A stretch of 64,000 nucleotides of DNA from Escherichia phage Delraymugoa: the sequence record OR896825.1, one strand, 5' to 3'. Under the pieces are notes generated by a model. It saw only the letters and a program-made list of their open reading frames with translations. It was not told the origin of the DNA and did no database searches. Positions 815 through 38,655 of the stretch are shown piece by piece. The translations under genes and the position numbers were made by a program. Every line of letters starts with the position of its first letter. Position 1 is the stretch's first letter.

Positions 815-1084
815 TTAGATATTTTCAGAAATAAATTTTAAAACTTGACGTAAATGTTTCTCATCTTTGATAGTCGCCGGAAGTTCTTCTTTTACTTCCT
901 GTGCAAGATAGATATTTCCGTTCCAAGTGAAAGATCCGTCTTCGTTTACGCGATAGCTGAACATCCACTCGCAATCATTTTCGATTTCATATACACACAG
1001 AAGGGTGTAATCGTTAAAGCTATTGATTTCAAGGTCGAAGCCGTGACGTTTTGCAAAGTTGGTAGTGGTTTTAGTCAGCGCCAT
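815..1084 (-). CDS. hypothetical protein (89 aa)
   Basis: ORF with conserved early leader/RBS. Confidence 0.5.
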   Translation of the reverse strand: MALTKTTTNFAKRHGFDLEINSFNDYTLLCVYEIENDCEWMFSYRVNEDGSFTWNGNIYLAQEVKEELPATIKDEKHLRQVLKFISENI

Positions 1085-1124
1085 TGTTTGATTCTCCTAA
1101 GTGGTATCTCGTTTCGATGGGTGT

Positions 1125-1153
1125 ATTATGCTATAGGCGTGATCTGGTGTCAA
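1125..1153 (-). promoter_or_regulatory. early promoter TTGACA-N17-CATAAT
   Basis: revcomp 1148-1153 TTGACA; revcomp 1125-1130 CATAAT. Confidence 0.55.
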
Positions 1154-1173
1154 CAACTTTTTTAATTTTTTGG

Positions 1174-1202
1174 AAATAAAAAAGCCGACACTAAGGTCGG
1201 CT
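1174..1202 (-). terminator. rho-independent terminator (hairpin AGCCGAC/GTCGGCT followed by U-run on minus strand)
   Basis: stem 1183-1189/1196-1202, A-run 1174-1183 on plus = U-run on minus transcript. Confidence 0.6.
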
Positions 1203-1209
1203 AATAAAA

Positions 1210-1518
1210 TCATTTAGACAAATAATCATTCAGTGCAATCCGGTCGGCGTATGCTGGTGTTACGTCAATCGCAATCACTTTAACGCGTGCTTTCTTGCGA
1301 CCTGGGTTTTCTCGTAACCAGTGCTCATGACCGTGAACATTTTTATACTTTGATGCTTCTTCAAATGTACGGATCGGACCTGGATAATCTGCGTAAAGGA
1401 TCTCTAGGTCTTCGGTGATGTAAAAATATACATCATAATTACTGTTCTCTAGTTTAAGCAGAGACTTTCGGAACATTGGGAGATTTTCGCGGGTAAATTC
1501 AAAGATATTATCTTTCAT
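1210..1518 (-). CDS. hypothetical protein, HxHW-AVDV paralog family member
   Basis: motifs HGHEHW and VIAIDV shared with five other ORFs in 1.9-4.7 kb. Confidence 0.55.
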   Translation of the reverse strand: MKDNIFEFTRENLPMFRKSLLKLENSNYDVYFYITEDLEILYADYPGPIRTFEEASKYKNVHGHEHWLRENPGRKKARVKVIAIDVTPAYADRIALNDYLSK

Positions 1519-1571
1519 AGTATTATCCTCAATAGTTTGATGAAAAGGGGTGGGGCTTAACGCCCCGTATA

Positions 1572-1859
1572 TTAAAACAGTCCTTCCTGTACACCGTAGT
1601 AGAGTTCATCGCTGATAATTTCATTAATGCGACGGTGTGCATATTCCTGATTTGCGAAGTTATCAGCAAGTTCTACTTTAGTTTCGCCGTCATGAGTCCA
1701 TTTAGTGATAACTTTACCATCTGCAAATTTGAAGTTGAACTCTTTAGCTACTGCATCGCGTACCAGACGTGCGAACTTGTTGTTACGGATTGCATTATCG
1801 GTTTCGTGTGCAGCGTGAGCGAATTTATTAACTTTCAGAGTGATAGTAATGTATGCCAT
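1572..1859 (-). CDS. hypothetical protein (95 aa)
   Basis: ORF with upstream RBS ctaggagaatcaaat. Confidence 0.5.
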   Translation of the reverse strand: MAYITITLKVNKFAHAAHETDNAIRNNKFARLVRDAVAKEFNFKFADGKVITKWTHDGETKVELADNFANQEYAHRRINEIISDELYYGVQEGLF

Positions 1860-1905
1860 AATTTGATTCTCCTAGTTAGAAAGTGTATCTCGTTTCGATG
1901 GGTGT

Positions 1906-1934
1906 ATTATGCTATACACCCGATCTTATGTCAA
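1906..1934 (-). promoter_or_regulatory. early promoter TTGACA-N17-CATAAT
   Basis: revcomp 1929-1934 TTGACA; revcomp 1906-1911 CATAAT. Confidence 0.55.
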
Positions 1935-1940
1935 CACTTT

Positions 1941-2219
1941 TTATAAAATAATTTTTTGATATTTTTCTATGATGTTTGTGTAGGTCACGTCAACAGCTAG
2001 CACCGTTGCTTCGAATCCACCGTTTAACCAATGGCTATGATCATGATCGTGAAAGAAACCTAGACCAGTACGAAGACCTTCTTTATATTCGGCGCGTACA
2101 TTTAGATCATCATCGATAAACAGATAAAACCATGAATTTTTACTAGGATTGATGATACAACCTTTCAGATTAGGGAGAATATCACGACTAAGAATAAACT
2201 TATCACCTACTTTGAGCAT
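1941..2219 (-). CDS. hypothetical protein, HxHW-AVDV family (start trimmed to MLKVGDKF)
   Basis: HDHDHSHW and LAVDV motifs; RBS GAGGAAAA before ATG at 2217-2219; track start lies in promoter. Confidence 0.5.
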   Translation of the reverse strand: MLKVGDKFILSRDILPNLKGCIINPSKNSWFYLFIDDDLNVRAEYKEGLRTGLGFFHDHDHSHWLNGGFEATVLAVDVTYTNIIEKYQKIIL

Positions 2220-2242
2220 AATATTTTCCTCACTTATAAAGT

Positions 2243-2542
2243 TTAACTGTTGTTTTTCTCGTAATGCTGAATGCGTGCTTGATCTGCTTCCGCTGGTGAT
2301 AGATTCCATGCAACCACTACAACTTCTGACGCATCGTCATCCGTTTCTGATACCCAATGATTGTGATTCATACAGTTATTTGCGATCGAGTGAGCAAATG
2401 ATTTCATCACTGGAGACGTATAATCATAGTAACGGATTTTCAGATTTTCATCAACGTACAAATAGATCGTATAAGGTTTATATTCAGTAACCAGTAACAG
2501 ACAGTTACGCAATTCTGGGAAAATCTTTTTAGTTAATTTCAT
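2243..2542 (-). CDS. hypothetical protein, HxHW family (start trimmed to MKLTKK)
   Basis: NHNHW motif; RBS GAGGAT before ATG at 2540-2542. Confidence 0.5.
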   Translation of the reverse strand: MKLTKKIFPELRNCLLLVTEYKPYTIYLYVDENLKIRYYDYTSPVMKSFAHSIANNCMNHNHWVSETDDDASEVVVVAWNLSPAEADQARIQHYEKNNS

Positions 2543-2543
2543 T

Positions 2544-2762
2544 TTATAATCCTCGGTCGCGGCTATAGTACACGGTACGCCATACAATTTCATGTTTCGT
2601 GTCGCTCCAGCACACGATCTCATTTACTCTTAAATCTTTGTTATCAACAAAAGATGAACATTGTGACGCTTCTTTCATCATTTTATCTGCTGTTTTCTCA
2701 TCAAATACAGCACAGATTTCTTTATACACCCGATAATCTTTGAATTGACTCTGAATACCCAT
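2544..2762 (-). CDS. small hypothetical protein, paralog of 2722..2979
   Basis: shared motif K.Y..I..V.....A.KMM..AS.C.SF with neighbour. Confidence 0.4.
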   Translation of the reverse strand: MGIQSQFKDYRVYKEICAVFDEKTADKMMKEASQCSSFVDNKDLRVNEIVCWSDTKHEIVWRTVYYSRDRGL

Positions 2763-2979
2763 AATTAACACCATTCCAACCAATTGTTTTTGAGAAAACG
2801 TTTATCCACTGTTGAGTGTAACATGTTTCTTTCCATGATACAATACGAGTAGAATAATGGTTTTTGTTTCCAGAAAAGGACGGGCATTTTGATGCATCTT
2901 CCATCATCTTTTCGGCGAACTCTGGTGCGTATACTCGCAGGATCTGTTGATATGCTTTGTATTCTTTAAATTTGCTCAT
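2722..2979 (-). CDS. small hypothetical protein, paralog of 2544..2762
   Basis: shared motif; RBS AAGGTAG upstream. Confidence 0.4.
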   Translation of the reverse strand: MSKFKEYKAYQQILRVYAPEFAEKMMEDASKCPSFSGNKNHYSTRIVSWKETCYTQQWINVFSKTIGWNGVNYGYSESIQRLSGV

Positions 2980-3244
2980 AATCATTCACTACCTTATCAG
3001 CTTCTTTTGTTGTTTTTACATCAACTGCGATAACTCGTAAAGGTTCGTCATGGTTCCACCAGTGGTCATGAATATCAGCTTGTGATTTATCACCAAAGGA
3101 ATCACGAATATCATTTTTACATTTATAGCTAATGTGACCTTCATAGTCAACATAAAGGTAATTATCGAAAATCGGCGTTTTTAAGATCATACCGAAAAAT
3201 CTTTCTTTGTGTGTCTTATCCAGCGTTGCAGTAATTCGCATCAT
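2966..3244 (-). CDS. hypothetical protein, HxHW-AVDV family
   Basis: HDHWW and VIAVDV motifs. Confidence 0.5.
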   Translation of the reverse strand: MMRITATLDKTHKERFFGMILKTPIFDNYLYVDYEGHISYKCKNDIRDSFGDKSQADIHDHWWNHDEPLRVIAVDVKTTKEADKVVNDYEQI

Positions 3245-3256
3245 AATATATTCCTC

Positions 3257-3436
3257 TTAGAAAGGGATGGTCATTTCTTGAGCTTGTACGTTCTCGTTAG
3301 GATTAAACTTCATCCAGCCGATATTGTCTACCAGCATATGCACATTTTTATCATATCCTACGTGGGTAGTCAATACTGTATGTGCTTTACCTTCAATGAT
3401 GAGTTCCATGTGCTTCTGAACTTCGATAGCTTTCAT
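3257..3436 (-). CDS. small hypothetical protein (59 aa), not in ORF track
   Basis: hand translation MKAIEVQKHMELIIEGKAHTVLTTHVGYDKNVHMLVDNIGWMKFNPNENVQAQEMTIPF; RBS and promoter upstream. Confidence 0.5.
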   Translation of the reverse strand: MKAIEVQKHMELIIEGKAHTVLTTHVGYDKNVHMLVDNIGWMKFNPNENVQAQEMTIPF

Positions 3437-3468
3437 TTTGATTCTCCGTTTGTTGTCTTGATGGGAGT

Positions 3469-3497
3469 ATCTTACTACTCCCTTTAATCATTGTCAA
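3469..3497 (-). promoter_or_regulatory. early promoter TTGACA-N17-TAAGAT with GGGAGTA...TACTCCC hairpin (PeSL)
   Basis: revcomp 3492-3497 TTGACA; hairpin gggagtatcttactactccc. Confidence 0.5.
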
Positions 3498-3500
3498 CTA

Positions 3501-3668
3501 TTATTTGTTAATTTCCGGTGCGTTGCTCGGATAGTAACCTTCTTTAACACCCAGATATTTTGCGACCATTCCGGTGATCTTCTGTGCTACTACGATATCG
3601 AATTTCAGGTAATCTTCACCGTGGTTTGCTACAATGTATGCTTCGCATTCTGCTTTAGTCTGGAACAT
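3501..3668 (-). CDS. small hypothetical protein (55 aa), paralog of 219..386 (start trimmed)
   Basis: MFQTKAECEAYIVANHGEDYLKFDIVVAQKITGMVAKYLGVKEGYYPSNAPEINK; ATG at 3666-3668 after conserved leader. Confidence 0.6.
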   Translation of the reverse strand: MFQTKAECEAYIVANHGEDYLKFDIVVAQKITGMVAKYLGVKEGYYPSNAPEINK

Positions 3669-3702
3669 TTTTGATTCTCCTATATCTCGTTGGTATGTGT
3701 GC

Positions 3703-3731
3703 ATTATAGGGGATCGGTGATCCCCTGTCAA
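3703..3731 (-). promoter_or_regulatory. early promoter TTGACA-N17-TATAAT with GGGGATCACCGATCCCC hairpin spacer (PeSL)
   Basis: revcomp 3726-3731 TTGACA; revcomp 3703-3708 TATAAT. Confidence 0.65.
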
Positions 3732-3738
3732 CAACTTT

Positions 3739-4047
3739 TTATTCTTCATCTTCATCTTTATCTTGATATGCGTACTTCATAAATTTGTCTGCTACTTTGT
3801 CCGCGTTTTCAGGTTCTACGTCTGACGCTAGGACAACAGCTAGTTCGGTTTTGTCGTTTCCATCATACCAATGATTATGAGTGTCGTTTTCTTCGATATA
3901 AAACGAATCATTTGGAGTTGTGCGACAATATACGTCTAAATTCCCATCGATATAAAAGATCCAATCCGAATACAAAATGATTGTTTTAGCAAGATTTTTA
4001 TTGCCTTCAACGAAAGGTTCGGCTACAAACAAATTAGTATGTTCCAT
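3739..4047 (-). CDS. hypothetical protein, HxHW-AVDV family (start trimmed to MEHTN)
   Basis: THNHW and ASDV motifs; RBS GAGGAAA before ATG 4045-4047. Confidence 0.5.
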   Translation of the reverse strand: MEHTNLFVAEPFVEGNKNLAKTIILYSDWIFYIDGNLDVYCRTTPNDSFYIEENDTHNHWYDGNDKTELAVVLASDVEPENADKVADKFMKYAYQDKDEDEE

Positions 4048-4063
4048 AGTAATTTCCTCAAAA

Positions 4064-4255
4064 TTATACAGCTTCGTAAACTTCCCAATGTCCAACACCA
4101 GCACGCTTAACGAAAAGGTTTTCTTTGATGTTATTCATAAACGTCTGGATGGATTTAATGCGATTTGAAGGTTTCCAGTCTTCGTTGGTATTGCGTCGAT
4201 ACATCATAACATTACCAGTTCGCTTATATTCAGCAACCATTTTAAGACCACACAT
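4064..4255 (-). CDS. small hypothetical protein (63 aa)
   Basis: ORF with RBS GAGGATAA. Confidence 0.4.
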   Translation of the reverse strand: MCGLKMVAEYKRTGNVMMYRRNTNEDWKPSNRIKSIQTFMNNIKENLFVKRAGVGHWEVYEAV

Positions 4256-4312
4256 AATATTATCCTCAATTTGTGGGAGAGTATTACCCCTCCCAATGAT
4301 TGTTATGTTATA

Positions 4313-4633
4313 TCACACAAAATGGCGTGTCAATGCTTCTTTTGCGGTTCCGCTAAGACTTTCGATCTCGCCTGGCATAACATCAACCGCCAGAACTTCT
4401 ACAACATCCTCGGACCCTAACCAGTGAGTATGGCCTTTGTAGAACTTGATAACCAGACTACCTTCCTCATCCCATTTAACGCTATCGCTAGCCCACCACA
4501 CATCACCGTCGATAAAGTTGATGTAAAGCACACTACGCCACATTGAATTAATTACTTTCAATACTGCGCCTTTCATCTCTTCCACGGTGTGGTCTTCCAT
4601 TTTGAAGACCTCGCCTACCTTAACTTTTGCCAT
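4313..4633 (-). CDS. hypothetical protein, HxHW-AVDV family
   Basis: GHTHW and LAVDV motifs. Confidence 0.5.
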   Translation of the reverse strand: MAKVKVGEVFKMEDHTVEEMKGAVLKVINSMWRSVLYINFIDGDVWWASDSVKWDEEGSLVIKFYKGHTHWLGSEDVVEVLAVDVMPGEIESLSGTAKEALTRHFV

Positions 4634-4650
4634 TTAGTCACCTCTCTTTA

Positions 4651-4830
4651 TTACATAACAATCACGCCAGCCGTTGAAAGTTGATGTTTCAACTGAGCAT
4701 TTTCTGCTACCGTCAAATCAATGATTTCTTGTGAAGCTGCAATCATATAGCCATTGGTGATATTGTTTTGCATCAGTTCAATGGTTTCTTCGTTGTAGCG
4801 GATTTTAGCGATGATTTCGTTGAAGTTCAT
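4651..4830 (-). CDS. small hypothetical protein (59 aa, start trimmed to MNFNEII)
   Basis: ATG 4828-4830 after ctaggagaatcaatt leader; track N-terminus reads through promoter. Confidence 0.5.
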   Translation of the reverse strand: MNFNEIIAKIRYNEETIELMQNNITNGYMIAASQEIIDLTVAENAQLKHQLSTAGVIVM

Positions 4831-4864
4831 AATTGATTCTCCTAGTTCGTTTCGGTATGTGTGT

Positions 4865-4893
4865 AGTATAGGGGATCGGTGATCCCCTGTCAA
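4865..4893 (-). promoter_or_regulatory. early promoter TTGACA-N17-TATACT with hairpin spacer (PeSL)
   Basis: revcomp 4888-4893 TTGACA; spacer GGGGATCACCGATCCCC. Confidence 0.6.
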
Positions 4894-4901
4894 CAACTTT
4901 T

Positions 4902-5213
4902 TTAAAGTTTTTCCATGATAACGGTCATAATTATATCTTCTGCGCGAGCGGTCAGATTATCAGCGTCAGCATGTGGGCGGTTGGTTGTTACAGAGATAAC
5001 ACCGTTGCGCACTGGTTTGATGTTGATATCAAGATGATCCGCGAAACGTTCGCCAGTTACAGAATGAATTTTGGTGTTAAATTCTTTTGCCAGTGCCTTG
5101 CGAACTTCACGAATCAGGGTAGCGTTTTTCAGTTGGTTCTCCGCGCTCATGGTCTTCTGGGTGTTCATGGTTCCGTCGAAGTCAATCATTGGCAGCGTTA
5201 CGATGTATTTCAT
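4902..5213 (-). CDS. hypothetical protein (103 aa, start trimmed to MKYIVT)
   Basis: ATG 5211-5213 after conserved leader; track start is GTG inside promoter spacer. Confidence 0.5.
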   Translation of the reverse strand: MKYIVTLPMIDFDGTMNTQKTMSAENQLKNATLIREVRKALAKEFNTKIHSVTGERFADHLDINIKPVRNGVISVTTNRPHADADNLTARAEDIIMTVIMEKL

Positions 5214-5258
5214 TTTTGATTCTCCGTTTAAGAAAGTGTGTTTCGTTTTGATGTGTGT

Positions 5259-5287
5259 AGTATAGGGGATCACCGATCCCCTGTCAA
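5259..5287 (-). promoter_or_regulatory. early promoter TTGACA-N17-TATACT with hairpin spacer (PeSL), near-identical to 4865..4893
   Basis: revcomp 5282-5287 TTGACA; revcomp 5259-5264 TATACT. Confidence 0.6.
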
Positions 5288-5300
5288 CAACTTTTTTGAA

Positions 5301-5645
5301 TTATTTTTTCATGAGCTTAATGGCTTCTTCCATAGCCAGCACATTTCGATAGTTAGGGTATCTTGTTAGATCGTCATACATTCGCTTAAGGGTGGAAACT
5401 TCCTCAAACTCTGGGTTTTCAAGATACAATTGAACGAATTGTTTCTCTACCATCTCTGCTTTTAGCTTGTCTGCTTGTTCCTGTTCATATGATTTAGTTG
5501 GACCCAACACCAACAAAATGATAAAGGTGATCAACGGGCTAATGATCAACGATAGGAGAACATAACCGATAACGCTACGGTTTAAACGGCTTGCGTACAT
5601 GCCTACCAGGAAAACAAAAAGGATATAGATAAACAGAAAGAACAT
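5301..5645 (-). CDS. small membrane protein (two predicted TM helices)
   Basis: N-terminal hydrophobic stretches FLFIYILFVFLVGMY and VIGYVLLSLIISPLITFIILLVLG. Confidence 0.5.
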   Translation of the reverse strand: MFFLFIYILFVFLVGMYASRLNRSVIGYVLLSLIISPLITFIILLVLGPTKSYEQEQADKLKAEMVEKQFVQLYLENPEFEEVSTLKRMYDDLTRYPNYRNVLAMEEAIKLMKK

Positions 5646-5652
5646 ATAATGG

Positions 5653-6126
5653 TTACTCCTTATTTTCGCGCTCGTACTTTTCGAAATAAAATTCTACTGG
5701 CTGGTCGTGGATTGACAGCAAGCCAAAGCGTTTAGCCGCTCGCAACCCCATATTGCGCTGAATGTACTTCTGGAAGTTCTCGCGTATACACTTACGCCAG
5801 TATTCTAAGCCCATACAGCTTTTATAAAGATTGCATTGCACACACGCCGGATTCATGTTATCAAGTATATCATGTTCCGGTTTATGCATTCCTACAACCT
5901 TATACTTCCACGATCCATCATCATTACGGGCAATTCGTCCATTTTCATCATAGACAACCTTTGAGCGTCGTAATACTGGTTTGATATGGTCTGCGTGCCA
6001 GCGATCCCCTAGTTCCTCGCCACAATAGGCACAACGTCCACCGTATTTCATTTTCAGGATCTGGCGTTGCTCTTTCTTTGACAATTTTTTAGGTTTAGGG
6101 GCTTTCGCCCCTTCATTATCACACAT
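5653..6126 (-). CDS. HNH endonuclease (free-standing, homing-endonuclease-like)
   Basis: CAYCGEEL...HADHIKPV...NMNPACVQCN = CxxC / HxDH / N...CxxCN HNH motif. Confidence 0.7.
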   Translation of the reverse strand: MCDNEGAKAPKPKKLSKKEQRQILKMKYGGRCAYCGEELGDRWHADHIKPVLRRSKVVYDENGRIARNDDGSWKYKVVGMHKPEHDILDNMNPACVQCNLYKSCMGLEYWRKCIRENFQKYIQRNMGLRAAKRFGLLSIHDQPVEFYFEKYERENKE

Positions 6127-7621
6127 CGAATACCTCTTTTACTGTATTTGCAGTGGTCTTGTCGTAGCGAATACGTTTGATGATTGGGAGAAATAAAGAG
6201 AACTCCGGTTCATCTTCTTTACGTGATTTGCTGCGGATATACCCGTTGCATGTCATCTCAATAACTTTTCCAATCAGGTTATGACGGTCAGCCCATAACA
6301 TTTCTCGGTCGAGTTCATTTCGACGATCGAACGGAATTACACGTTCAGTACCATCATCACCTTTTTCGGTTGTAGTGTCGGTTAATCCCGATCCGGTGTT
6401 AGTCATCATTCGTCCGCACGCACTACGGACAGTAAAACCGCCTACCTTATTGGGGTCTTTACTATGCGGATATACATCAACAATTTCCGCGTCGAAGTCA
6501 ATCACTTCTTTAAATTTAACCTGATCTTTACTACGGCGATCTTCAAATACACCATGTAAATTTTTAAGGATAATACCTTCTAAGCCCATGTTGACATAAC
6601 GATGATATACTTCGCGAGCTTCATCGATATTGTTAACTACAGTGTTTTCGATGATCTGAACACGAGGATCGTTAAGTTCTTCAACAATCTGTTTTAGTTC
6701 TTCGAATCGATCTTTATATTGCTTCGTTGCTTTCTCGTTTCCGTAATACACATCACGGTCGATAACATCCCAGACAGTGTAAACAATACATTGGGCTTCT
6801 TCTTTTGGAATAGTTCCTTTAAGTGATTTGTTGAGGATACCATTTCCGGTCTGACGATCTGCAACAACGGATTCTTTCACTGCTTCCGCTACTGGCGTTA
6901 ATGGCATTTCCTCTTCTTCAAATATCCATGACAGAGTACCATCATAAACGCTTTCAACGAAGTTCTGCGCTGGTGTTTGCGAAAGGGTAGGCATATATAC
7001 CAATTCGCCATCTAGAACAATTCCACGGCCTCGTAGACGCTCTAAAACCGCAAACAAATCATCAAGCCCTTGATAGGTATTACCTGAGCGGGTATAGATT
7101 GCTAATGTTTCCCCGTCAATATCAGCCATACCACGAGCGCCATCGCTTTTAAGTTGTGCATACGCCGGATACTTGATATTAGCAATAGTCTTATCAGAAC
7201 ATGACGATGCAAGGTGGCACGGCTGCTGGGGGATCAGTTTCTTCCATACCTTGTTTGCAGTGGTAGCGGAACAGCCGCATTCCAGATCACGATTCAGGAC
7301 CATCATTGCAACTTTAGCATCATCCTCTGACAAGCAAGTCAGAGTATCGGTAACTAGTTGTAATGCTGCATTACCAGTTACTTGACGGGTGGCAAGTTTA
7401 TTTTTAAAGACCTGTAATGCACCGGATAAAGACAATACAGACGAATAGCGAGATGGTTTATCGTATTTCTTTACGCCAAACGTAACCTGTTTGCAATATG
7501 CCAGATAAAAGCATTCTTTCAGCGTTTCATTGCTTGCTGATTCTTTCAGAATCTTTTCTTTCAGCGATGTTTTGTCTGTTGCTGCAAGCTGATTAATGAT
7601 ATTAAGAATTGACATTTTCAC
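6119..7621 (-). CDS. 30: ATP-dependent DNA ligase (T4 gene 30 homolog)
   Basis: KxDG adenylation motif (AQLKSDGARG), 500 aa, position upstream of gene 31/cd as in T4. Confidence 0.9.
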   Translation of the reverse strand: MKMSILNIINQLAATDKTSLKEKILKESASNETLKECFYLAYCKQVTFGVKKYDKPSRYSSVLSLSGALQVFKNKLATRQVTGNAALQLVTDTLTCLSEDDAKVAMMVLNRDLECGCSATTANKVWKKLIPQQPCHLASSCSDKTIANIKYPAYAQLKSDGARGMADIDGETLAIYTRSGNTYQGLDDLFAVLERLRGRGIVLDGELVYMPTLSQTPAQNFVESVYDGTLSWIFEEEEMPLTPVAEAVKESVVADRQTGNGILNKSLKGTIPKEEAQCIVYTVWDVIDRDVYYGNEKATKQYKDRFEELKQIVEELNDPRVQIIENTVVNNIDEAREVYHRYVNMGLEGIILKNLHGVFEDRRSKDQVKFKEVIDFDAEIVDVYPHSKDPNKVGGFTVRSACGRMMTNTGSGLTDTTTEKGDDGTERVIPFDRRNELDREMLWADRHNLIGKVIEMTCNGYIRSKSRKEDEPEFSLFLPIIKRIRYDKTTANTVKEVFDV

Positions 7622-27840: not shown

Positions 27841-28026
27841 TTAAGTTCTCTCCACTCTCACAACAACATATTCGCCAAACGAGTTAGATACTTCACGATC
27901 ATACCCGTATTTCTCCATAACTCGCAGAATTGCATTGTTTAATTCGGCACGGAAATAATTGTAATCCTTATCAGGGATTCTGTCAACTACCCATTTTGCA
28001 CCTTCTGACAAATCAACTTTAACCAT
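27841..28026 (-). CDS. hypothetical protein (61 aa)
   Basis: ORF. Confidence 0.4.
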   Translation of the reverse strand: MVKVDLSEGAKWVVDRIPDKDYNYFRAELNNAILRVMEKYGYDREVSNSFGEYVVVRVERT

Positions 28027-28064
28027 AATATATCATCCTCTTTTGTTTCTATCAAGCCTTATTT

Positions 28065-28072
28065 TATAAATA
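28065..28072 (+). promoter_or_regulatory. T4-type late promoter TATAAATA upstream of gene 34
   Basis: exact TATAAATA 29 nt before ATG 28101. Confidence 0.65.
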
Positions 28073-28100
28073 TGAACATACTATAAAAGGAGACCCAATA

Positions 28101-31100
28101 ATGGCAGATTTTTCTCAACATTTCAAGGCCACATTTGGCTTTGACGCTGGTAATGAAAAGGTCGTCAATGTAGCATTGGCTGATAAGAATGTCAACACCG
28201 ATGCGGTCAACGTTGAATTTTTCAATTACCATAATGGTATTACTCAGTATGACACAACTCGCGGTTATGATCAATACGGAACTACAATCTATCAAAACCG
28301 TCCGTATTATGCAAAAGAAGATATCACAAAGCCAGCAGGTGATTTTGACCCGACTAAATGGCAAGCACTGCGCACGGACCCACGTTGGGATTATATTGCA
28401 GCAACTTCCGGTGATACTCCTTTAAAGTCTGGTGATTATATCGCAGCAGATGGTCAATTTGCAAACTTGACTTTCTCTATGCCAACTAAACCAGCAGAGG
28501 GAGACACTATAACAGTAAAAGATATCGGTGGCAAGTGTGGTGTTAACGAATTATCGTTCTTGAGTACAGGACATGAGTTTTACCATAACGGTAATGTGTA
28601 TAACAGAAAATGGTATTGCACTACCCCGTATGCAATGAACTATTTCATCTTTGTTCGGAATCGTTGGCATGTTTATCAGACAGGAACAGAGCCACGCGGT
28701 GTGTACGCACAGCCAGCGATTGATGCTATTCAAATGCAGAATGGTGATCAGGTATTTCGTCGTAGTTCGTTGGGTAATATTACCTTAGTGCTTCCTAAGT
28801 TTGCCAACAATGGCGACATGATCCAGACTACAGACCTTGACGGATTAACCGCAACCAACCACGTTACGGTTAAAGTTCATGAGCACGCAGAAGAACAATC
28901 AATTGGCACGTCCGGTCTAAAAGAGATTATCGGTAAGCGTAGCGGTCATGGTGTATTCATCTTTGACAAGACGGAAAACTTATGGCGTTTGTGGGATGGT
29001 GATCAGTCTGTTCGTCTTAAACCGATCATCAATGACACTCGCTTGCAACCTAATAGCTATGTTGCTGTATTTGGTGGTCGTGATGTTACTCTGACGCTGC
29101 CGACCAATGTCGAGCCGGGTGATCGTATTCAAGTTTCTATGCAGTATATGCACGGAAACCAGACTTGCCGAATCATTACCTCAGAAGAGGATACAAAAAT
29201 CCTTATGCAGAAAAACATGGTTCAGTTTCCTAAGCGTAGCGAGTACCCATTCAATGGGACCGATACATGGACTGGAGTGTCTGAATTGTCTTTCAACGCT
29301 GCAAATGATTATGTACCTTATCTGGAGTTCTCTTATTCAGAAGGTGATGATGGTAAGAAATACTGGTTGGTGGCACATGCTCACCCGATTGTAGAACGAG
29401 TAGATCCGACTCGTAAAGATCGTGTTGGTGTAATTGCACTGGCTACCCAGACTGAAACGAATAAAAACCATGAAGAGAATCCTAGCGACGAAGTTGCTGT
29501 AACACCAAAAATGCTGGCTAATAAAACAGCCAACGAAACTCGACGCGGTATTGCTCGCATTGCGACTCAAGCGGAAACGCATCAAGATACTGGTTCCAAC
29601 TTCCTGGATGATGTTATCGTTACACCCAAAAAGTTAAATGACTGTGTTGCTACCGAAGCCCGTCGTGGTGTGATGGAAATTGCAACCCAGCACGAAACCA
29701 ATGAAGGTTTAGACGATACCCGCGCTATTACTCCTAAGAAATTAGAAGAACGTCGCGCTTCCGAAGATCTAGCTGGTATTGCTGAAATTGTTCAGGCTGG
29801 CGGTAGTGCTGCCGCTCGACGTGGCGAAGCTGGTACAGGGATCTATAACATCAACGACCATGCTAAAATTGTTACGCCACAAAACATCAACGAAGTCAAG
29901 GCGACCGAAACTTCCCGTGGTGTTGGCTATCTGGCAACTGACGCGGAAGTGCAAGGGGCTACAGAATCAACCCCGCAAGATGCTTTACTAATCACGACTC
30001 GCACGCTAACGAAACGTACTGCTACCGAATCGCGCACTGGTATCGCTGAAATTGCAACTCAGGAAGAAACAAACTTAGGTCAAAGTGATAACCATATCAT
30101 CACGCCTAAAAAGCTGCATACTCGCCGCGCAACTGAAACTTTACATGGTTTAGCAGAAATTGCAACTCAACCGGAGTTTGACGCAGGTCGTGACGATTCT
30201 CGCATTTCTACCCCATTGAAGATTAAAACCTTCTTTGAGAATGCACAGCGTTTGAAAGTAGATCCGACTCAGGGGCTTAACCTTACTGGTGATTTGTGGC
30301 AAGGTATCATGATCAGCGGTCTGGATGCAACCGAAGACACAAAAGGTGTCGCTAAAGTTGCTACTACTCAGCTTACTGACGCTGGTCAAGATGATACTAC
30401 AATCATCACGCCTAAAAAGCTGCAAGGCAAAAAGGCCACCGAAGGTAAAGAAGGTATTATCCGGGTTGGTACTCAAGCCGAAACCGTTGCTGGTATTATG
30501 GACAATGTAGCAATTTCTCCGAAGAACTTCAAATATGTTGTTCAGACAGAGGATACATGGAAAGCAACCGAAGCGCGTCGTGGATTCTTGAAAGTTGCTA
30601 CTCAGGAAAACTGTTTTGTTGGTGACAATCTGCAAGGTTCTACTCAAGAACTAGGAAACTACCAGCATGACGGAATTGCTGTTACCCCGAAAGGATTAAA
30701 CTACGCACTTGCTAATTTCTTACCTAAGATGGCAACCGCTCAGAATAGTTTGAAATTGGGTAACGTAGAGGCCGCTAAATGGGCGCGTAGAGACATTGAC
30801 CAGACCATAGAGAGCAATTACACGTTTAATAAAAAAGTTAACGTGAAGGGCGATTTAGAGTGCTTAAAATCAGGTTCCTTTGAAACTCTGTCTGTGACTA
30901 AGAACTCGACCGATGTTCCGAGTAATGGTCATCTGGTGTTGGGTGAGCGTGGAGTTGACGGTCACACCGGAATTACTCTGCATGGCACAACCGCATCGGA
31001 AGGCATGAAAAACTCTTGGTCTATTATCGTTGGTGGTACGGGAACAGCGCAAGTTGTTGATAGTGATGCTATCGCTTTCGGTAAAATCAATGATGGTGGA

Positions 31101-31841
31101 GTCGTTGAGCATTACGCCTTTGCTATGAAACACAATGGCGACGCGACAGCATATAGAGACTTTATTGCAGGTCGTAACCTGTATGCGAAACAAGGCGGTT
31201 TATACATTGTTGACCAGTCTAATCCGGCAATGACTCGTTCCCCAGATGGTATGCTGAATATCGGCCACGGTGGAAGTGTTAACATCAAGGCAGGTCATCA
31301 AACGTTAACTACAGAGATCGCCGGACAGAAATATCAGATCGTACACGCAGGAAACGCTGACGAAGTTCTTAACCGTCAGTTTGTTAAGAATGCTGGCGAT
31401 ACAATGGTCGGTAAGCTGACTATGGATAATGCGCCTATTGTTTCTGTTAAGCATGAAGCTAGCGCGGCAACCGCTCCGGCAATCGGTAACATCGGTTTCT
31501 GGAATATGCGAGTTACTACCCAGAACATCAAAGAAACTTATCCAGAGAAGAAAAACGGTACTCTGATGCAATGGGGTACTGACGCGGACGGGCTTACCCA
31601 GCTTTGGTCCCCTGATGGTACTCATAAACATTATATCCGTTCCGGTACTGGTGGTCAATGGACCGCATGGGGTGAAATTTACACCAAACAGAACAAGCCT
31701 ACCGCTCAGGAAATTGGGGCAGTGGTTGCCGAAGGTGGTTTGATGAACTCTATGACGGTTCGTGATTGGATCAAAGTTGGTAATGTTAAAATCATCGCCA
31801 ATAATCTGACTCGTACCGTAGACTTTATCTGGGAAGACTAA
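28101..31841 (+). CDS. 34: long tail fibre proximal subunit (gp34-like)
   Basis: 1246 aa, repeated GIAEIATQ.ET...ITPKKL motifs, followed by 35-36-37. Confidence 0.8.
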   Translation: MADFSQHFKATFGFDAGNEKVVNVALADKNVNTDAVNVEFFNYHNGITQYDTTRGYDQYGTTIYQNRPYYAKEDITKPAGDFDPTKWQALRTDPRWDYIAATSGDTPLKSGDYIAADGQFANLTFSMPTKPAEGDTITVKDIGGKCGVNELSFLSTGHEFYHNGNVYNRKWYCTTPYAMNYFIFVRNRWHVYQTGTEPRGVYAQPAIDAIQMQNGDQVFRRSSLGNITLVLPKFANNGDMIQTTDLDGLTATNHVTVKVHEHAEEQSIGTSGLKEIIGKRSGHGVFIFDKTENLWRLWDGDQSVRLKPIINDTRLQPNSYVAVFGGRDVTLTLPTNVEPGDRIQVSMQYMHGNQTCRIITSEEDTKILMQKNMVQFPKRSEYPFNGTDTWTGVSELSFNAANDYVPYLEFSYSEGDDGKKYWLVAHAHPIVERVDPTRKDRVGVIALATQTETNKNHEENPSDEVAVTPKMLANKTANETRRGIARIATQAETHQDTGSNFLDDVIVTPKKLNDCVATEARRGVMEIATQHETNEGLDDTRAITPKKLEERRASEDLAGIAEIVQAGGSAAARRGEAGTGIYNINDHAKIVTPQNINEVKATETSRGVGYLATDAEVQGATESTPQDALLITTRTLTKRTATESRTGIAEIATQEETNLGQSDNHIITPKKLHTRRATETLHGLAEIATQPEFDAGRDDSRISTPLKIKTFFENAQRLKVDPTQGLNLTGDLWQGIMISGLDATEDTKGVAKVATTQLTDAGQDDTTIITPKKLQGKKATEGKEGIIRVGTQAETVAGIMDNVAISPKNFKYVVQTEDTWKATEARRGFLKVATQENCFVGDNLQGSTQELGNYQHDGIAVTPKGLNYALANFLPKMATAQNSLKLGNVEAAKWARRDIDQTIESNYTFNKKVNVKGDLECLKSGSFETLSVTKNSTDVPSNGHLVLGERGVDGHTGITLHGTTASEGMKNSWSIIVGGTGTAQVVDSDAIAFGKINDGGVVEHYAFAMKHNGDATAYRDFIAGRNLYAKQGGLYIVDQSNPAMTRSPDGMLNIGHGGSVNIKAGHQTLTTEIAGQKYQIVHAGNADEVLNRQFVKNAGDTMVGKLTMDNAPIVSVKHEASAATAPAIGNIGFWNMRVTTQNIKETYPEKKNGTLMQWGTDADGLTQLWSPDGTHKHYIRSGTGGQWTAWGEIYTKQNKPTAQEIGAVVAEGGLMNSMTVRDWIKVGNVKIIANNLTRTVDFIWED

Positions 31842-31874
31842 TTAAAGGGGGCGAAAGCCCCCTATGGGGTTATT

Positions 31875-33014
31875 ATGACACAAGATATAGAATTACGCAA
31901 TACTGGAATTAGGTTTGCGCATTTCGACGAAGACTCTGCGACATTTACCAGCATTTCAGAAAATAACTCTGTGATGTATAAGCTGGAAGTGCGCGGATCT
32001 AATGCGGATTCTACCAAACCAGCAAGGATTAGATTTAATGGAGTGGAGATCGTTGGCACTGGCTATGAAAATGGCCTAAATTTTAAAGTTCTTACTCCAA
32101 CTGGACAGCTACACGAAGAAAAGGTATTCTATGGTCGCGGTGCTGTTTTGGCAATGCGTGATTATCTTTCTTTGCTGAAAGGTGACTATATCATTGCGAT
32201 GGCAACGCATGGAGAATTGTTTGCAGATCCGATAAGTGATGTTGTATTTTCTAAGATGGGATCTGTATCATTCCCGAATCACATTTTGTTACAGCAAATG
32301 CCTCGTGTATCCTATGCAGCAATTTATTCTACTAAAATGGGTAAAATTGTGTGCGAAGGGATGCAAGCGACCAACGGGGAAGGACAAGATTCATCTATAC
32401 AAATTGAGAAAGTCTATGATACTATAGATGATCTTGCTATAACAGGAACACCACAACGATTTTTAGATTATCCGGTTGAGTATGTTAGCGAAGATGCCGA
32501 ACATTTCGAGCTAATACAATGGCCTCATGATGAGATCAGCGCACCACTTGAAGATTTTAACATAAAAGCAGGTGACAAACTATCAATATCTTTTGAATTG
32601 TTCCGTGATAGTGCCGCAGCCGCAGCCAACGTAACAGCGCGTTTCTATCACAACTACTTCACCGATGGACAATATAAAACTGGTGTTCGATACAATGCCA
32701 GCAAAAAAGATCAATGGGAAAAGTTTGAAGCCGTCTATACCGTACCGGAAGGAGTTGATAGTGTTACCACTGGTTGCGTTAGATATCCAACCAACTCAAA
32801 TGAAGGTATTGTTAAAGTTAGAAACATACTAATAACGCCGATCAGTGGAGTTGTCAAAACGACTGGTCCTACTTCCTTTGGTGTTAACGGTGTTAGAACA
32901 ACTCACATTCAGGATAACGGTGATTTTACTAACCCTGTAATGAGTCTTCTTAAACTACCCAGAGACAATAAACATATCACATCCAACAACTTTAAAGAGT
33001 TCGATGTTGATTAA
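31875..33014 (+). CDS. 35: long tail fibre hinge connector (gp35-like)
   Basis: 379 aa, position between 34 and 36. Confidence 0.6.
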   Translation: MTQDIELRNTGIRFAHFDEDSATFTSISENNSVMYKLEVRGSNADSTKPARIRFNGVEIVGTGYENGLNFKVLTPTGQLHEEKVFYGRGAVLAMRDYLSLLKGDYIIAMATHGELFADPISDVVFSKMGSVSFPNHILLQQMPRVSYAAIYSTKMGKIVCEGMQATNGEGQDSSIQIEKVYDTIDDLAITGTPQRFLDYPVEYVSEDAEHFELIQWPHDEISAPLEDFNIKAGDKLSISFELFRDSAAAAANVTARFYHNYFTDGQYKTGVRYNASKKDQWEKFEAVYTVPEGVDSVTTGCVRYPTNSNEGIVKVRNILITPISGVVKTTGPTSFGVNGVRTTHIQDNGDFTNPVMSLLKLPRDNKHITSNNFKEFDVD

Positions 33015-33025
33015 CATTTTTAACA

Positions 33026-33055
33026 AGCCGATCCATGTGGTCGGCTTTATTTTTA
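33026..33055 (+). terminator. rho-independent terminator after gene 35
   Basis: hairpin AGCCGA..TCGGCT followed by TTTATTTTTAT. Confidence 0.6.
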
Positions 33056-33174
33056 TATAGTTGGTTAAAATGTAACCAAAACGAAGAAAGATCTTTAGAA
33101 TATAGAAAATTTGTTTCGGTTAAAAATTAGTCAGTGCCTCCGGCACGTCGCGAAGCGATATTTTGTTAACATTC

Positions 33175-33182
33175 TATAAATA
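33175..33182 (+). promoter_or_regulatory. T4-type late promoter TATAAATA upstream of gene 36
   Basis: exact TATAAATA 34 nt before ATG 33216. Confidence 0.65.
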
Positions 33183-33215
33183 CTCGGAACTATAACTAAT
33201 TTTTGAGGTTACTTT

Positions 33216-34706
33216 ATGGCAGATTTGAAACATGGATCTACTGTAGGCGGATCTCCCATTTGGACGCAAGGAAACTTGACGATCCAGCCAGCGGGGGATC
33301 AGCTTTTCTACAAAGGTCATAAAATCTATACCGCTTTTGATAGACCTTCGGCTACCGATTTTGATGCTGTTAGCGCATCCGAAGGTGGAACATTTCAAAA
33401 GCAAGTTCATTTCGAGGAAGGTTTAAGCGTAGGTAGCGCATCGGCGGGTGAAACCAAAAAGAATGGTATCTTTAAAGGCCAGAGTGATGCTGCTAATTTT
33501 GACGGTGTAAGCTGGGGTTTGCATTCATGGAAGTCAATCGGCTTTGTTAATGCCCGTGATGGCGTTATCATGGCGTATATTGACACCACAACGGGCGAAT
33601 TTAAGTCTAAAGGGACTATCGAAGGGACAACCATTAAAGACACTGGTCAACGCGTCTATAGCCCTGTTAATAAACCAACGAATAATGATTTAGATTTGGT
33701 GTCTCGTCGCGGTGATACTCTCACAGGAACATATAATTTAAACACTGTCACTGTTAAACTATCGGTTGATTCGAAATTAATTGCAAGGGAACGTGATTTA
33801 ATTAATTTTGATGCGACTAAGATCTATTATGGTAACGTTCTTGACACGTTGGTCTTCCGAAGTAAAGATGAGCCTACCATTTTTGTTAATGGCAGAGAAG
33901 GTCGTTTTTATCACACCAACAATAAACCAACTAAAGCCGATGTTGGGCTAGGCAATGTCACCAATGATGCACAGGTTAAACGTGCTGGTGATATTATGGA
34001 AGGTAACTTGCAAGCGCCTAGAATGTTGGCGACAAACGATCCTGCTGGTCCTAATGAATTGGTTCGTTTGAGCTACTTTGAGAGAAAATCAATGGTAGCA
34101 AATCCAACCATCATTGGAAACGTTGATTGGAACACTCTTATTAATCGCGGTATCTATCGTGTGGAAAATGCTGGATCCGGTACTAATAAACCGTCTGATA
34201 GCTATTATAACGGCGTTTTGATGGTATATCGCCCAGAAGATGCGGTCGGTACTCGTCGAATTGTTCAAGTGTATTATCCTGAATCTATTGACCATCCGAT
34301 GTGCTGGCGTTCGTGTTCTAATGAATCATGGACTGCATGGAACTATGTAGATCACCGTAAATTAGCCGATATTCGCTATGTTAACGTCACTGGCGATACA
34401 ATGACAGGACCGTTAACTGTTCCGGCTGCAAACGGTGTTAGAACAGCTAAAACTAACTATAACGGGGATAACTGTTATGCGGCGTTAAGCGGTGCTGATG
34501 GTACTGCTATGATTCACCGCATTAGTGATATTAAAGGGACCGAAAAGCTGGGGATCACCCACGACTCAAAGGTCGTGTTTTTCCGTTCTAGAAACAATAC
34601 TCAAACCGTGGACCGCTATCAGCTTTATCATGAAGGTAATAAACCTACTCCGGCTGATGTTGGCGCGGTTCCACTTAATGCGGTGATTGATTTTGGTACT
34701 TTCTAA
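33216..34706 (+). CDS. 36: long tail fibre distal subunit, proximal part (gp36-like)
   Basis: 496 aa, repeated YH.GNKPT.ADVG motifs shared with gp37. Confidence 0.6.
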   Translation: MADLKHGSTVGGSPIWTQGNLTIQPAGDQLFYKGHKIYTAFDRPSATDFDAVSASEGGTFQKQVHFEEGLSVGSASAGETKKNGIFKGQSDAANFDGVSWGLHSWKSIGFVNARDGVIMAYIDTTTGEFKSKGTIEGTTIKDTGQRVYSPVNKPTNNDLDLVSRRGDTLTGTYNLNTVTVKLSVDSKLIARERDLINFDATKIYYGNVLDTLVFRSKDEPTIFVNGREGRFYHTNNKPTKADVGLGNVTNDAQVKRAGDIMEGNLQAPRMLATNDPAGPNELVRLSYFERKSMVANPTIIGNVDWNTLINRGIYRVENAGSGTNKPSDSYYNGVLMVYRPEDAVGTRRIVQVYYPESIDHPMCWRSCSNESWTAWNYVDHRKLADIRYVNVTGDTMTGPLTVPAANGVRTAKTNYNGDNCYAALSGADGTAMIHRISDIKGTEKLGITHDSKVVFFRSRNNTQTVDRYQLYHEGNKPTPADVGAVPLNAVIDFGTF

Positions 34707-34710
34707 TTTT

Positions 34711-34736
34711 AGCGGGGATTATCTCCCCGCTTTTCT
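34711..34736 (+). terminator. hairpin/terminator after gene 36
   Basis: AGCGGGGA-ttatc-TCCCCGCT then TTTTCT. Confidence 0.5.
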
Positions 34737-34776
34737 AAATAATATTATTCTAATAACCGTTTAAGGATTTTATAAA

Positions 34777-37683: not shown

Positions 37684-37725
37684 GGAAAAATCCCAGGGAA
37701 GGGAAACTACTAAGGAGAAACGGCT

Positions 37726-37965
37726 ATGGTCTATAATATCGTCATTGGTGCTTTGTCTAATTTCGGAATGAAATTATTGTCAAAGTTAATTAGTGAAAAG
37801 ATGCTCACTAAAATTTTCTTCTATTGCGCTCGTCGTCTTGCGGCTTATACCAATACGCCAATTGATGATCGTTTTGTGGAAGAACTTTATAAGGAGTTTA
37901 ATAAAGATCAGTCAGAAGATAGTAACGAGCAAGATAAACCTAGTGATAGTCAACTACCTAAATAA
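37726..37965 (+). CDS. small hypothetical protein (79 aa) between fibre gene and holin
   Basis: strong RBS TAAGGAGA; hydrophobic N-terminus. Confidence 0.5.
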   Translation: MVYNIVIGALSNFGMKLLSKLISEKMLTKIFFYCARRLAAYTNTPIDDRFVEELYKEFNKDQSEDSNEQDKPSDSQLPK

Positions 37966-37998
37966 GAGTACACTGTCATAGTTATCTTAGGGCATTAT

Positions 37999-38655
37999 AT
38001 GCAAGTTTCTGAAAAAGGGAAAGACTTTGCTATCTCAAATGTCCTGCGCGCTATTTTCACAACTAAAAGCACGGAGTTGCTCGTACTTCGTGTTTTTGCT
38101 GCCGTCGTGTTGTCCATATTAGCATTTGTCGTTTATAGTAAAAACGAGTTATTTGCGCTTTATAAAGAGACTCGTTATGAGACTTATGCTCACATTCTCC
38201 AGGTAGAGAAAGACCGCAATTTTGATAATGCAGCACAGGAGCAGTTACAGATAGTTCATGTGTCGGCTGATGCCGATTTTTCTGCTGTTTTTAGTTTTCG
38301 TCCGAAAAACCTAAACTATTTTGTTGATTTGGTGGCATATGAAGGAAAGCTACCTCACACAATCGATGAAAAAAATTTAGGCGGATTCCCTATCAATAAA
38401 ACGAGTGAAGAATATCGTAGGCATCTTTTAGGTAAATCATATTTTACCGATAAAGATTTCCAGTATATTCCATCAAGAGAAAAGAAATTAGAGAATATCG
38501 ATATAGGTTTCATGTATTCTTGTCCTATATTCAATCTCGATAATGTCTATTCTGGTAGTATCGCCATTTCATGGAAGAATAAACCGGATATTGACATTGA
38601 GAATTTAGATACTCTTTGCAATCAATCTGCCAGAATCCTCGGAAGGATTAGATAA
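37999..38655 (+). CDS. t: holin T
   Basis: 218 aa; LQIVHVSADADFSAVFSFRPKNLNYFVDLVAYEGKLP and CNQSARILGR match T4 holin. Confidence 0.85.
   Translation: MQVSEKGKDFAISNVLRAIFTTKSTELLVLRVFAAVVLSILAFVVYSKNELFALYKETRYETYAHILQVEKDRNFDNAAQEQLQIVHVSADADFSAVFSFRPKNLNYFVDLVAYEGKLPHTIDEKNLGGFPINKTSEEYRRHLLGKSYFTDKDFQYIPSREKKLENIDIGFMYSCPIFNLDNVYSGSIAISWKNKPDIDIENLDTLCNQSARILGRIR

Follow-up and report, generated by a model that had tools for sequence, protein, structure and literature searches.

Six small proteins encoded in the hyperplastic region of Escherichia phage Delraymugoa form one diverged HxHW family

Unexplored early genes of T4-like phages are found chiefly in hyperplastic regions, which have yielded many counter-defence and host-takeover proteins. 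In phages RB49 and phi1, such regions contain PeSL cassettes, in which a strong sigma-70-like early promoter is combined with a stem-loop terminator (PMC2839356). Both the promoter and the terminator activity of PeSLs were shown experimentally for this RB49/phi1 region, and RB49 open reading frames (ORFs) 192-211 are the examples used by Arbiol et al. 2010 (PMC2839356). The same phage group and the same region are concerned here. The window, a stretch of 64,000 nucleotides (nt) of Escherichia phage Delraymugoa (GenBank OR896825.1), derives from an RB49-like T4 relative (genus Krischvirus, Straboviridae), and it carries an array of six small ORFs, labelled p1 to p6 by coordinate (Table 1). The array constitutes part of the hyperplastic region that extends from alt, the ADP-ribosyltransferase gene just left of the window, to the DNA ligase gene. 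All genes in this interval are on the minus strand. The T4 counterpart contains alt.1 alone, and the stretch is therefore considered a lineage-specific hyperplastic region. While the PeSL setting of the RB49/phi1 hyperplastic regions is already published, the recognition of the six ORFs as one orphan family is new.

An initial annotation of this DNA had proposed, from shared motifs, that the six ORFs represent one diverged paralogous family expanded locally within a hyperplastic region, and had named compositional similarity as the finding that would speak against it. All six ORFs are indeed present on the minus strand with ATG starts, each preceded at a distance of 6-10 nt by its own ribosome-binding site, a GAGG-type Shine-Dalgarno (SD) sequence. 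For p3, the RB49p200 annotation has a longer N-terminus than the SD-preceded ATG start in the window. Pairwise BLASTP comparisons yielded E values of 1e-12 for p1/p3 and about 1e-4 for p1/p6, p2/p6, and p2/p4, but several other pairs were not significant. Therefore, the family was tested with profiles. Hidden Markov models (HMMs) built from five members recovered the omitted sixth among 653 stop-to-stop segments of the whole window with E values from 8.8e-15 to 7e-8, the best unrelated segment being at E>=0.1. The omitted member scored 29-50 bits versus a maximum of 7-13 bits in about 1000 composition-preserving shuffles of itself. Because the true scores far exceed the shuffle scores, the similarity is positional and not compositional. 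Both tests agree on a single paralogous family. The six ORFs go back to ancient tandem or local duplication of one domain of about 90-105 residues and all lie within 3.4 kb, as the local expansion proposed initially would have it. Judged from the sequences, this kinship is obvious only at the profile level.

In a MAFFT alignment of the six proteins, H-x-H-W falls in a single column block, and H, H, and W are invariant together with V.A in the strand that follows. Two strands, the aromatic 'LYID' and 'VLAVDV', also line up across the six proteins. With respect to the motifs pointed out initially, HxHW and the following strand are thus positionally conserved, but the Asp of '(A/I)VDV' is not invariant, this site reading AIDV, AVDV, AWNL, AVDV, ASDV, and AVDV from p1 to p6. 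Among 30 diverged members that were aligned, neither the second His nor the Trp ever changes, and conservation of the first His is at least 90%; the acidic positions that the initial annotation had taken, with His-x-His, as a hint of metal binding are not invariant.

A seventh member was detected neither in the window, with a broader profile as well, nor in the remaining ~100 kb of phage AV108, the closest complete genome (best E 0.078, 969 segments). Sequences identical to p1, p2 (or the p2 cluster), and p4 are also listed for AV108. The neighbouring ORFs o815 and o463 gave no match to the family profile in hhalign. The detectable complement in Delraymugoa is six, all inside 3.4 kb. Immediately upstream of the p6 orthologue, JSE-type phages have an ORF of 88 aa (3801-4067 in the JSE locus L011 and 7581-7847 in L005) that is absent from the window. 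It has the same strand pattern ('IIYVTEDDVYAIW ... VHLLAHSV ... helix') but no HxHW. Comparison with the family gave E 8e-3 and a template modelling (TM) score of 0.62-0.64 in Foldseek, and E 0.011 in hhalign, so that this ORF may represent a seventh copy in degenerate form.

Table 1. Features of the HxHW array and its surroundings in the Delraymugoa window. E values are from leave-one-out HMM searches; pI, isoelectric point; dN/dS, ratio of non-synonymous to synonymous substitution rates; AF2, AlphaFold2; pLDDT, predicted local distance difference test.
Feature	Position	Strand	Description
p1	1210-1518	minus	102 aa, HEHW; RB49p197 orthologue; E 2e-13; AF2 pLDDT 78.8
p2	1941-2219	minus	92 aa, HSHW; RB49p199 orthologue; E 3.2e-8; source of best structure model
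p3	2243-2542	minus	99 aa from SD-preceded ATG, HNHW; RB49p200 orthologue; E 8.8e-15
p4	2966-3244	minus	92 aa, HDHW; RB49p203 orthologue; E 1.8e-8
p5	3739-4047	minus	102 aa, HNHW; RB49p206 orthologue; very acidic, pI 4.2; E 7e-8
p6	4313-4633	minus	106 aa, HTHW; RB49p208 orthologue; E 2.8e-9; dN/dS 0.05-0.24
PeSL cassettes	383-457, 757-818, 1088-1165, 1885-1946, 3666-3743, 4828-4905, 5222-5299 (also 199-230)		repeats
P4893	4865-4893	minus	PeSL-type sigma-70 promoter; TTGACA-17-TATACT, stem-loop between hexamers; upstream of o4651 and p6
o4651	4651-4830	minus	59 aa, phrog_14803 (unknown function); leader ORF, predicted first gene of p6 unit
P4333	4305-4333	minus	promoter-like site; TTGACA-17-TAACAT, 10/12, followed by GGGAG..CUCCC hairpin; upstream of o4064 and p5
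o4064	4064-4255	minus	63 aa, phrog_16334; leader ORF, predicted first gene of p5 unit
P3731	3703-3731	minus	consensus PeSL; TTGACA-GGGGATCACCGATCCCC-TATAAT; divides p6/p5 units from p4-p2 unit; upstream of o3501
P3497	3469-3497	minus	promoter-like site; TTGACA-17-TAAGAT, 10/12, hairpin overlaps -10
o3257	3257-3436	minus	59 aa, phrog_15082; leader ORF, predicted first gene of p4-p3-p2 unit
o2722 and o2544	2722-2985, 2544-2762	minus	tandem paralogues, 40% identical, phrog_8471; between p4 and p3
P1934	1906-1934	minus	PeSL promoter; TTGACA-17-CATAAT; overlaps p2 stop; upstream of o1572 and p1
o1572	1572-1859	minus	95 aa, phrog_7474; leader ORF of p1 unit; paralogue of o4902 (4902-5213)
GC hairpin GGGGCGUUAAGCCCC	1552-1566	minus	in 53-nt o1572-p1 spacer; possible attenuator
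Hairpin and U-tract	1183-1202	minus	intrinsic-terminator-like; directly 3' of p1 stop
DNA ligase gene	6119-7621	minus	right border of hyperplastic region

Bases 1000-5000 of the window match 57 phage records with 90-99% identity, all from RB49-type coliphages and among them RB49, phi1, and JSE. In tblastn searches of 50,697 phage genomes, p1 matched 55 records, all RB49-type coliphages, and two diverged members likewise led to RB49-type coliphages only. All five matching records looked into are filed under Krischvirus, and no family member was found in the T4 alt-30 region. Two profile searches against 5.8 billion clusters gave 87 and 39 hits, respectively. When 1.84 billion representatives were searched exhaustively with HMMER, 23 were hit at E<=1e-3. 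The convincing hits are p1-p6 orthologues on 160-176-kb phage contigs and a few diverged metagenomic members (P0088-P0099); four long proteins, P0101-P0104 (E 1e-4 to 1e-3), matched over short stretches only and were disregarded. The contigs carrying distant members measured mostly 1-3 kb and were of little use. The HxHW family is confined to Krischvirus-like (RB49-type) T4 relatives.

Comparison of the loci revealed an identical six-copy order in RB49, JK32, Skers, kvi, JSE, and a 170-kb metagenome phage. Since the order is the same in every RB49/JSE-type locus checked, the duplications are old. Each of the diverged members clusters with one subtype of the window, so that much of the duplication predates these lineages. 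Diverged variants with 52-56% identity or less stand in place of p3 and p2 in the JSE lineage; in a more distant lineage with 72% ligase identity, the region is shorter and contains two p5-like copies. On a 2.1-kb metagenome contig (SRR8048117_15661, locus L002), five domains are contained in four ORFs. One of these, P0088 (823-1434), specifies a 203-aa protein with two HxHW domains in tandem; it is directly followed by two single-domain members and preceded by another.

The initial annotation had suggested diversifying selection. Orthologue dN/dS values, however, were 0.04-0.32 for all six paralogues, with dS up to >1, while 0.01-0.04 was obtained for the ligase. Within and between subtypes, variation is greatest in the loop before HxHW, but even there the ratio of non-synonymous to synonymous polymorphism (pN/pS) was 0.22 compared to 0.21 for the rest of the protein. 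Together with the stable gene order, these values contradict diversifying selection: the array is old and stably kept, and its functional genes are under purifying selection and do not form a rapidly churning arsenal. Some single copies are broken: p1 of kvi (L010 7001-7258) has a premature stop, and frameshifts in p1 (7001-7308) and p5 (4654-4948) of JSE (L011) split each gene into two annotated ORFs. In phage FL04, the leader ORF o4064 is joined in frame to p5, resulting in a 172-aa protein (P0170). The broken copies fit dispensable accessory genes or sequencing errors. These copies and the non-significant BLASTP pairs are what could be quoted in favour of non-functional remnants or of motifs shared by chance or composition. 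Such an explanation has practically no chance of being correct in view of the leave-one-out and shuffle tests, the dN/dS values, the order kept in six other genomes, and the confident, concordant structure models described below; homology, selection, and synteny tests refute it.

To describe the domain, an AF2 model of p2 was built on a 30-sequence alignment (pLDDT 88.4, predicted TM score 0.82). It shows the elements E7-9, H12-18, E21-24, E31-35, E41-45, a loop, H62-66, which starts at HSHW, E70-75, and H83-91 (E, strand; H, helix). The predicted domain accordingly opens with a short strand and a helix, continues with three strands, the variable loop, the short HxHW helix, and a fifth strand ('VLAVDV'), and ends in a helix. 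In the p1 model the order of elements is identical. Models of p1-, p4-, and p6-type proteins from BFVD superimpose on the p2 model with TM scores of 0.62-0.72 at 19-26% identity; being independent, these predictions also confirm the paralogy structurally.

Apart from the family itself, the fold search in BFVD retrieved uncharacterised actinophage proteins only. Weak fold hits were to mixed small barrels and sheets: the Tis1 immunity protein, mS34, eL14, MazF/CcdB/Kid, AcrIIA7, Tad2, and Cif-type papain folds. Models and fold comparison thus point to no characterised family, in agreement with the initial annotation, which could put no name to the fold. An SH3/KOW-like small barrel with an extra C-terminal helix is a reasonable, putative description, not an established one. 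Small SH3-like/KOW-type beta-barrels form a class that includes the Spt5 KOW domains, eL14, and MazF/CcdB. The N-termini of p2 and p6 ('KVGDKF...LKG') resemble a KOW hairpin, and one source labels P0071, a p2 orthologue, 'KOW2-KOW3 domains of Spt5'. It could be argued from this that the proteins are SH3-like, KOW, or Sm-like barrels binding nucleic acid, the ribosome, or RNA polymerase and tuning early transcription or translation. We regard this as distinctly improbable, since neutral to strongly acidic proteins (net charge -0.2 to -16) are poorly suited to bind RNA or DNA, and not even at E<=10 was a Pfam KOW or SH3 match obtained.

Sequence databases offered little further help. Pfam searches with the six proteins and the 30 members at E<=1 and E<=10 returned scattered sub-threshold hits to single members (PROCT, Cupin_2, T4_Y03C), NCBIfam contained no match for the family, and a profile search of PDB sequences gave a best E of 1. 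In PADLOC-DB, 0 families matched at E<=1; this collection holds defence and not anti-defence proteins and says little on counter-defence. The pI of the six proteins ranges from 6.8 down to 4.2, and a Cys pattern is absent. They are probably cytoplasmic and mostly acidic, and would be too small and too poor in conserved polar residues for a conventional enzyme.

The conservation of HxHW itself can be read in another way. It could form a site for a metal or small molecule, to which both subunits of a dimer might contribute. The proteins would then serve as ligand binders or sponges, for example of a nucleotide-derived signal, or else as small metallo-enzymes, and the ligand would differ between paralogues. 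The nearly complete retention of both His and of the Trp in 30 members that are otherwise about 20-30% identical favours such a site, as do the frequent, though not invariant, Asp in 'YID' and 'VDV' and the tandem two-domain fusion, which hints at dimers. Two His residues alone are insufficient, however, and a third conserved ligand is absent from the 30 members. The Cupin_2 hit concerns one member only (E 0.18), and the Trp-containing turn may be merely structural. On balance a ligand site, although the main alternative, is considered unlikely.

To define the transcriptional context, sigma-70-like promoters were searched on the coding strand. Sites with at least 10 matches in 12 hexamer positions were found only at 5287, 4893, 4333, 3731, 3497, 1934, 1153, 806, 448, and 204; all but 4333 and 3497 show 11-12 matches. 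Weaker 9/12 sites are not in excess (26 observed, 19.3±4.3 expected from shuffled sequence). The strong sites fall on a repeated 60-75-nt element, TTGACA-GGGGATCACCGATCCCC-TATAAT and variants, which belongs to repeat families D1/D2 with 5-6 copies and stable hairpins between or beside the hexamers. Because they coincide with the repeated element and fold into the expected hairpins, the strong sites are identified as PeSLs. Their minus-strand consensus is AAAAAGTTGTTGACA-GGGGATCNNCGATCCCC-TATAAT...GGAGAATCAAA-ATG. Six-frame translation of the PeSLs yields a recurring pseudo-peptide, 'LTGDHRSPI.HTYRNE.GES', in the ORF list.

According to the initial annotation, each of the six genes has an early promoter of its own. 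This applies to none of them. The strong sites are located elsewhere, and the spacers directly upstream of p1 to p6 comprise 53, 23, 1, 12, 16, and 17 nt. These are too short for a promoter, so that every family gene takes the second or a later place in its unit, behind an unrelated small ORF. Five units can be inferred: P4893 would drive o4651 and p6; P4333 o4064 and p5; P3731 o3501; P3497 o3257, p4, o2722, o2544, p3, and p2, in this order; and P1934 o1572, the GC hairpin, and p1 up to the terminator. P4333 is embedded in the 3' end of p6; the AT-rich arm of PeSL P3731 contains the p5 stop, and PeSL P1934 the p2 stop. The start of o2722 and the p4 end share 20 nt, and o2544 likewise begins before o2722 has ended.

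Four of the six family genes directly follow an unrelated leader ORF of 59-95 aa. Such pairs would be expected if the proteins were toxins or growth inhibitors with a MazF/CcdB-like barrel, each paired with a small upstream ORF. This is very improbable: p2 and p3 have no leader partner, neither a PemK/CcdB match in Pfam nor a PADLOC match was obtained, and the structural support is at noise level. Moreover, the leader ORFs are related neither to the HxHW family nor to one another, with the exception of o1572 and o4902. The latter two show 36% identity over the N-terminal 50 aa.

Taken together, the six proteins may be non-catalytic binding modules, because they are small and acidic, lack an enzyme signature, and share only three invariant residues. 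Translated from their own ribosome-binding sites and transcribed as downstream genes of four short units behind PeSL-type or promoter-like sigma-70 sites, p1-p6 would have a stoichiometric effect during early infection. A scaffold or a shared contact would be supplied by the conserved core and the HxHW element, and surfaces particular to each paralogue would recognize different targets in the host or its defences; the domains might work as dimers, as suggested by the natural fusion P0088. This reading, early non-catalytic binders with a shared core and HxHW turn and with different targets for the paralogues, is the one we prefer, at a confidence slightly short of even. Several points weigh against it. 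Two His that are strictly retained among paralogues of about 20-25% identity would be expected more often in a ligand, metal, or catalytic site than in a pure scaffold. Early expression of p1-p6 is predicted from promoter sequences and from published reporter assays on neighbouring PeSLs. Finally, the database records of p1-p6 in dozens of genomes all say hypothetical protein. A role in anti-defence or host takeover is plausible; it found no PADLOC match and nothing in the literature searched. Searches for RB49p197-208, for Krischvirus paralogues and anti-defence, and for RB49 gene duplication revealed no paper on the HxHW family, and the text of a toxic-protein screen (PMC8145870) contains neither 'RB49' nor 'Krischvirus'.

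A bolder proposal would be that the HxHW domain is a previously unseen fold with a ligand site, and that the six paralogues, possibly as homo- or heterodimers, are graded early sponges or inhibitors of different E. coli immune signals or effectors. There is only a slim chance of this; if true, the locus would be a compact Krischvirus-specific counter-defence array. As phage accessory families go, this one is of an ordinary kind, and the finding would be ordinary if it proves only structural or a redundant accessory; there is nothing yet in the HxHW array to surprise a specialist. In any case, six 'hypothetical proteins' become one tractable family with an invariant HxHW element, in which two His and the Trp are clear mutational targets and the 3.4-kb array offers a clean genetic handle by deletion, RB49 and phi1 being well-established phages in the laboratory. 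The regulatory picture is corrected as well, the family genes being placed in operons behind PeSL promoters and not in single-gene cassettes.

Other features of the window were noted. A 172-nt direct repeat, 84% identical, is present at 218-389 and 3500-3671. It contains o219 and o3501, each just 3' of a PeSL, which specify 55-aa proteins with 89% identity (phrog_8009); it looks like a recent cassette duplication within the hyperplastic region. Next to the ligase gene, an HNH endonuclease gene (5653-6126, minus strand) overlaps the ligase start by 8 nt; T4 has no gene there. It is followed by a 114-aa ORF (5301-5645, minus strand) with a strongly hydrophobic N-terminal half and two likely transmembrane segments, the sole obviously membrane-type protein in this stretch. 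From about 28000 to 38000, GC skew and AT skew flip sign for about 10 kb and then return, which is consistent with a plus-strand gene block in an otherwise minus-strand window.

Cupins and other His-x-His metal enzymes combine HxH...E...H with a double-stranded beta-helix, whereas two His are conserved here in a five-strand domain of about 90 aa. MazF/CcdB toxins are recognized by a profile match and a cognate antitoxin upstream; no such match was obtained for p1-p6, and the ORFs upstream of them are unrelated to each other. Nor was there a DUF2829 match in Pfam, the mark of the anti-Thoeris sponge Tad2, and the resemblance to small anti-defence proteins such as Tad2 and AcrIIA7 is within noise. 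In PHROGs, the six proteins match phrog_9345, 17255, 16486, 15972, and 15965 (E 1e-50 to 1e-72). These are five separate groups of unknown function, of which phrog_9345 has cross-matches to five of the six proteins. The present analysis shows them to be a single family that has a common fold and signature. The closest parallel is provided by the PeSL-flanked ORFan cassettes (PMC2839356; Comeau et al. 2014, PMC4122927), with which the locus shares small ORFans of unknown function between repeated sigma-70 promoter and stem-loop cassettes. The features of the PeSL element, an AT-rich arm, -35/-10 hexamers, stem-loop, and SD within about 60-100 bp, are all present in the window. In contrast to single ORFans flanked by PeSLs, the HxHW genes are internal or terminal in units of two to six genes. 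The word 'paralog' occurs in neither PMC2839356 nor PMC4122927, and ORFs 197, 199, 200, 203, 206, and 208 are not mentioned there as one family. Both papers describe the shuffling of unrelated ORFans, whereas the six ORFs analysed here share descent.

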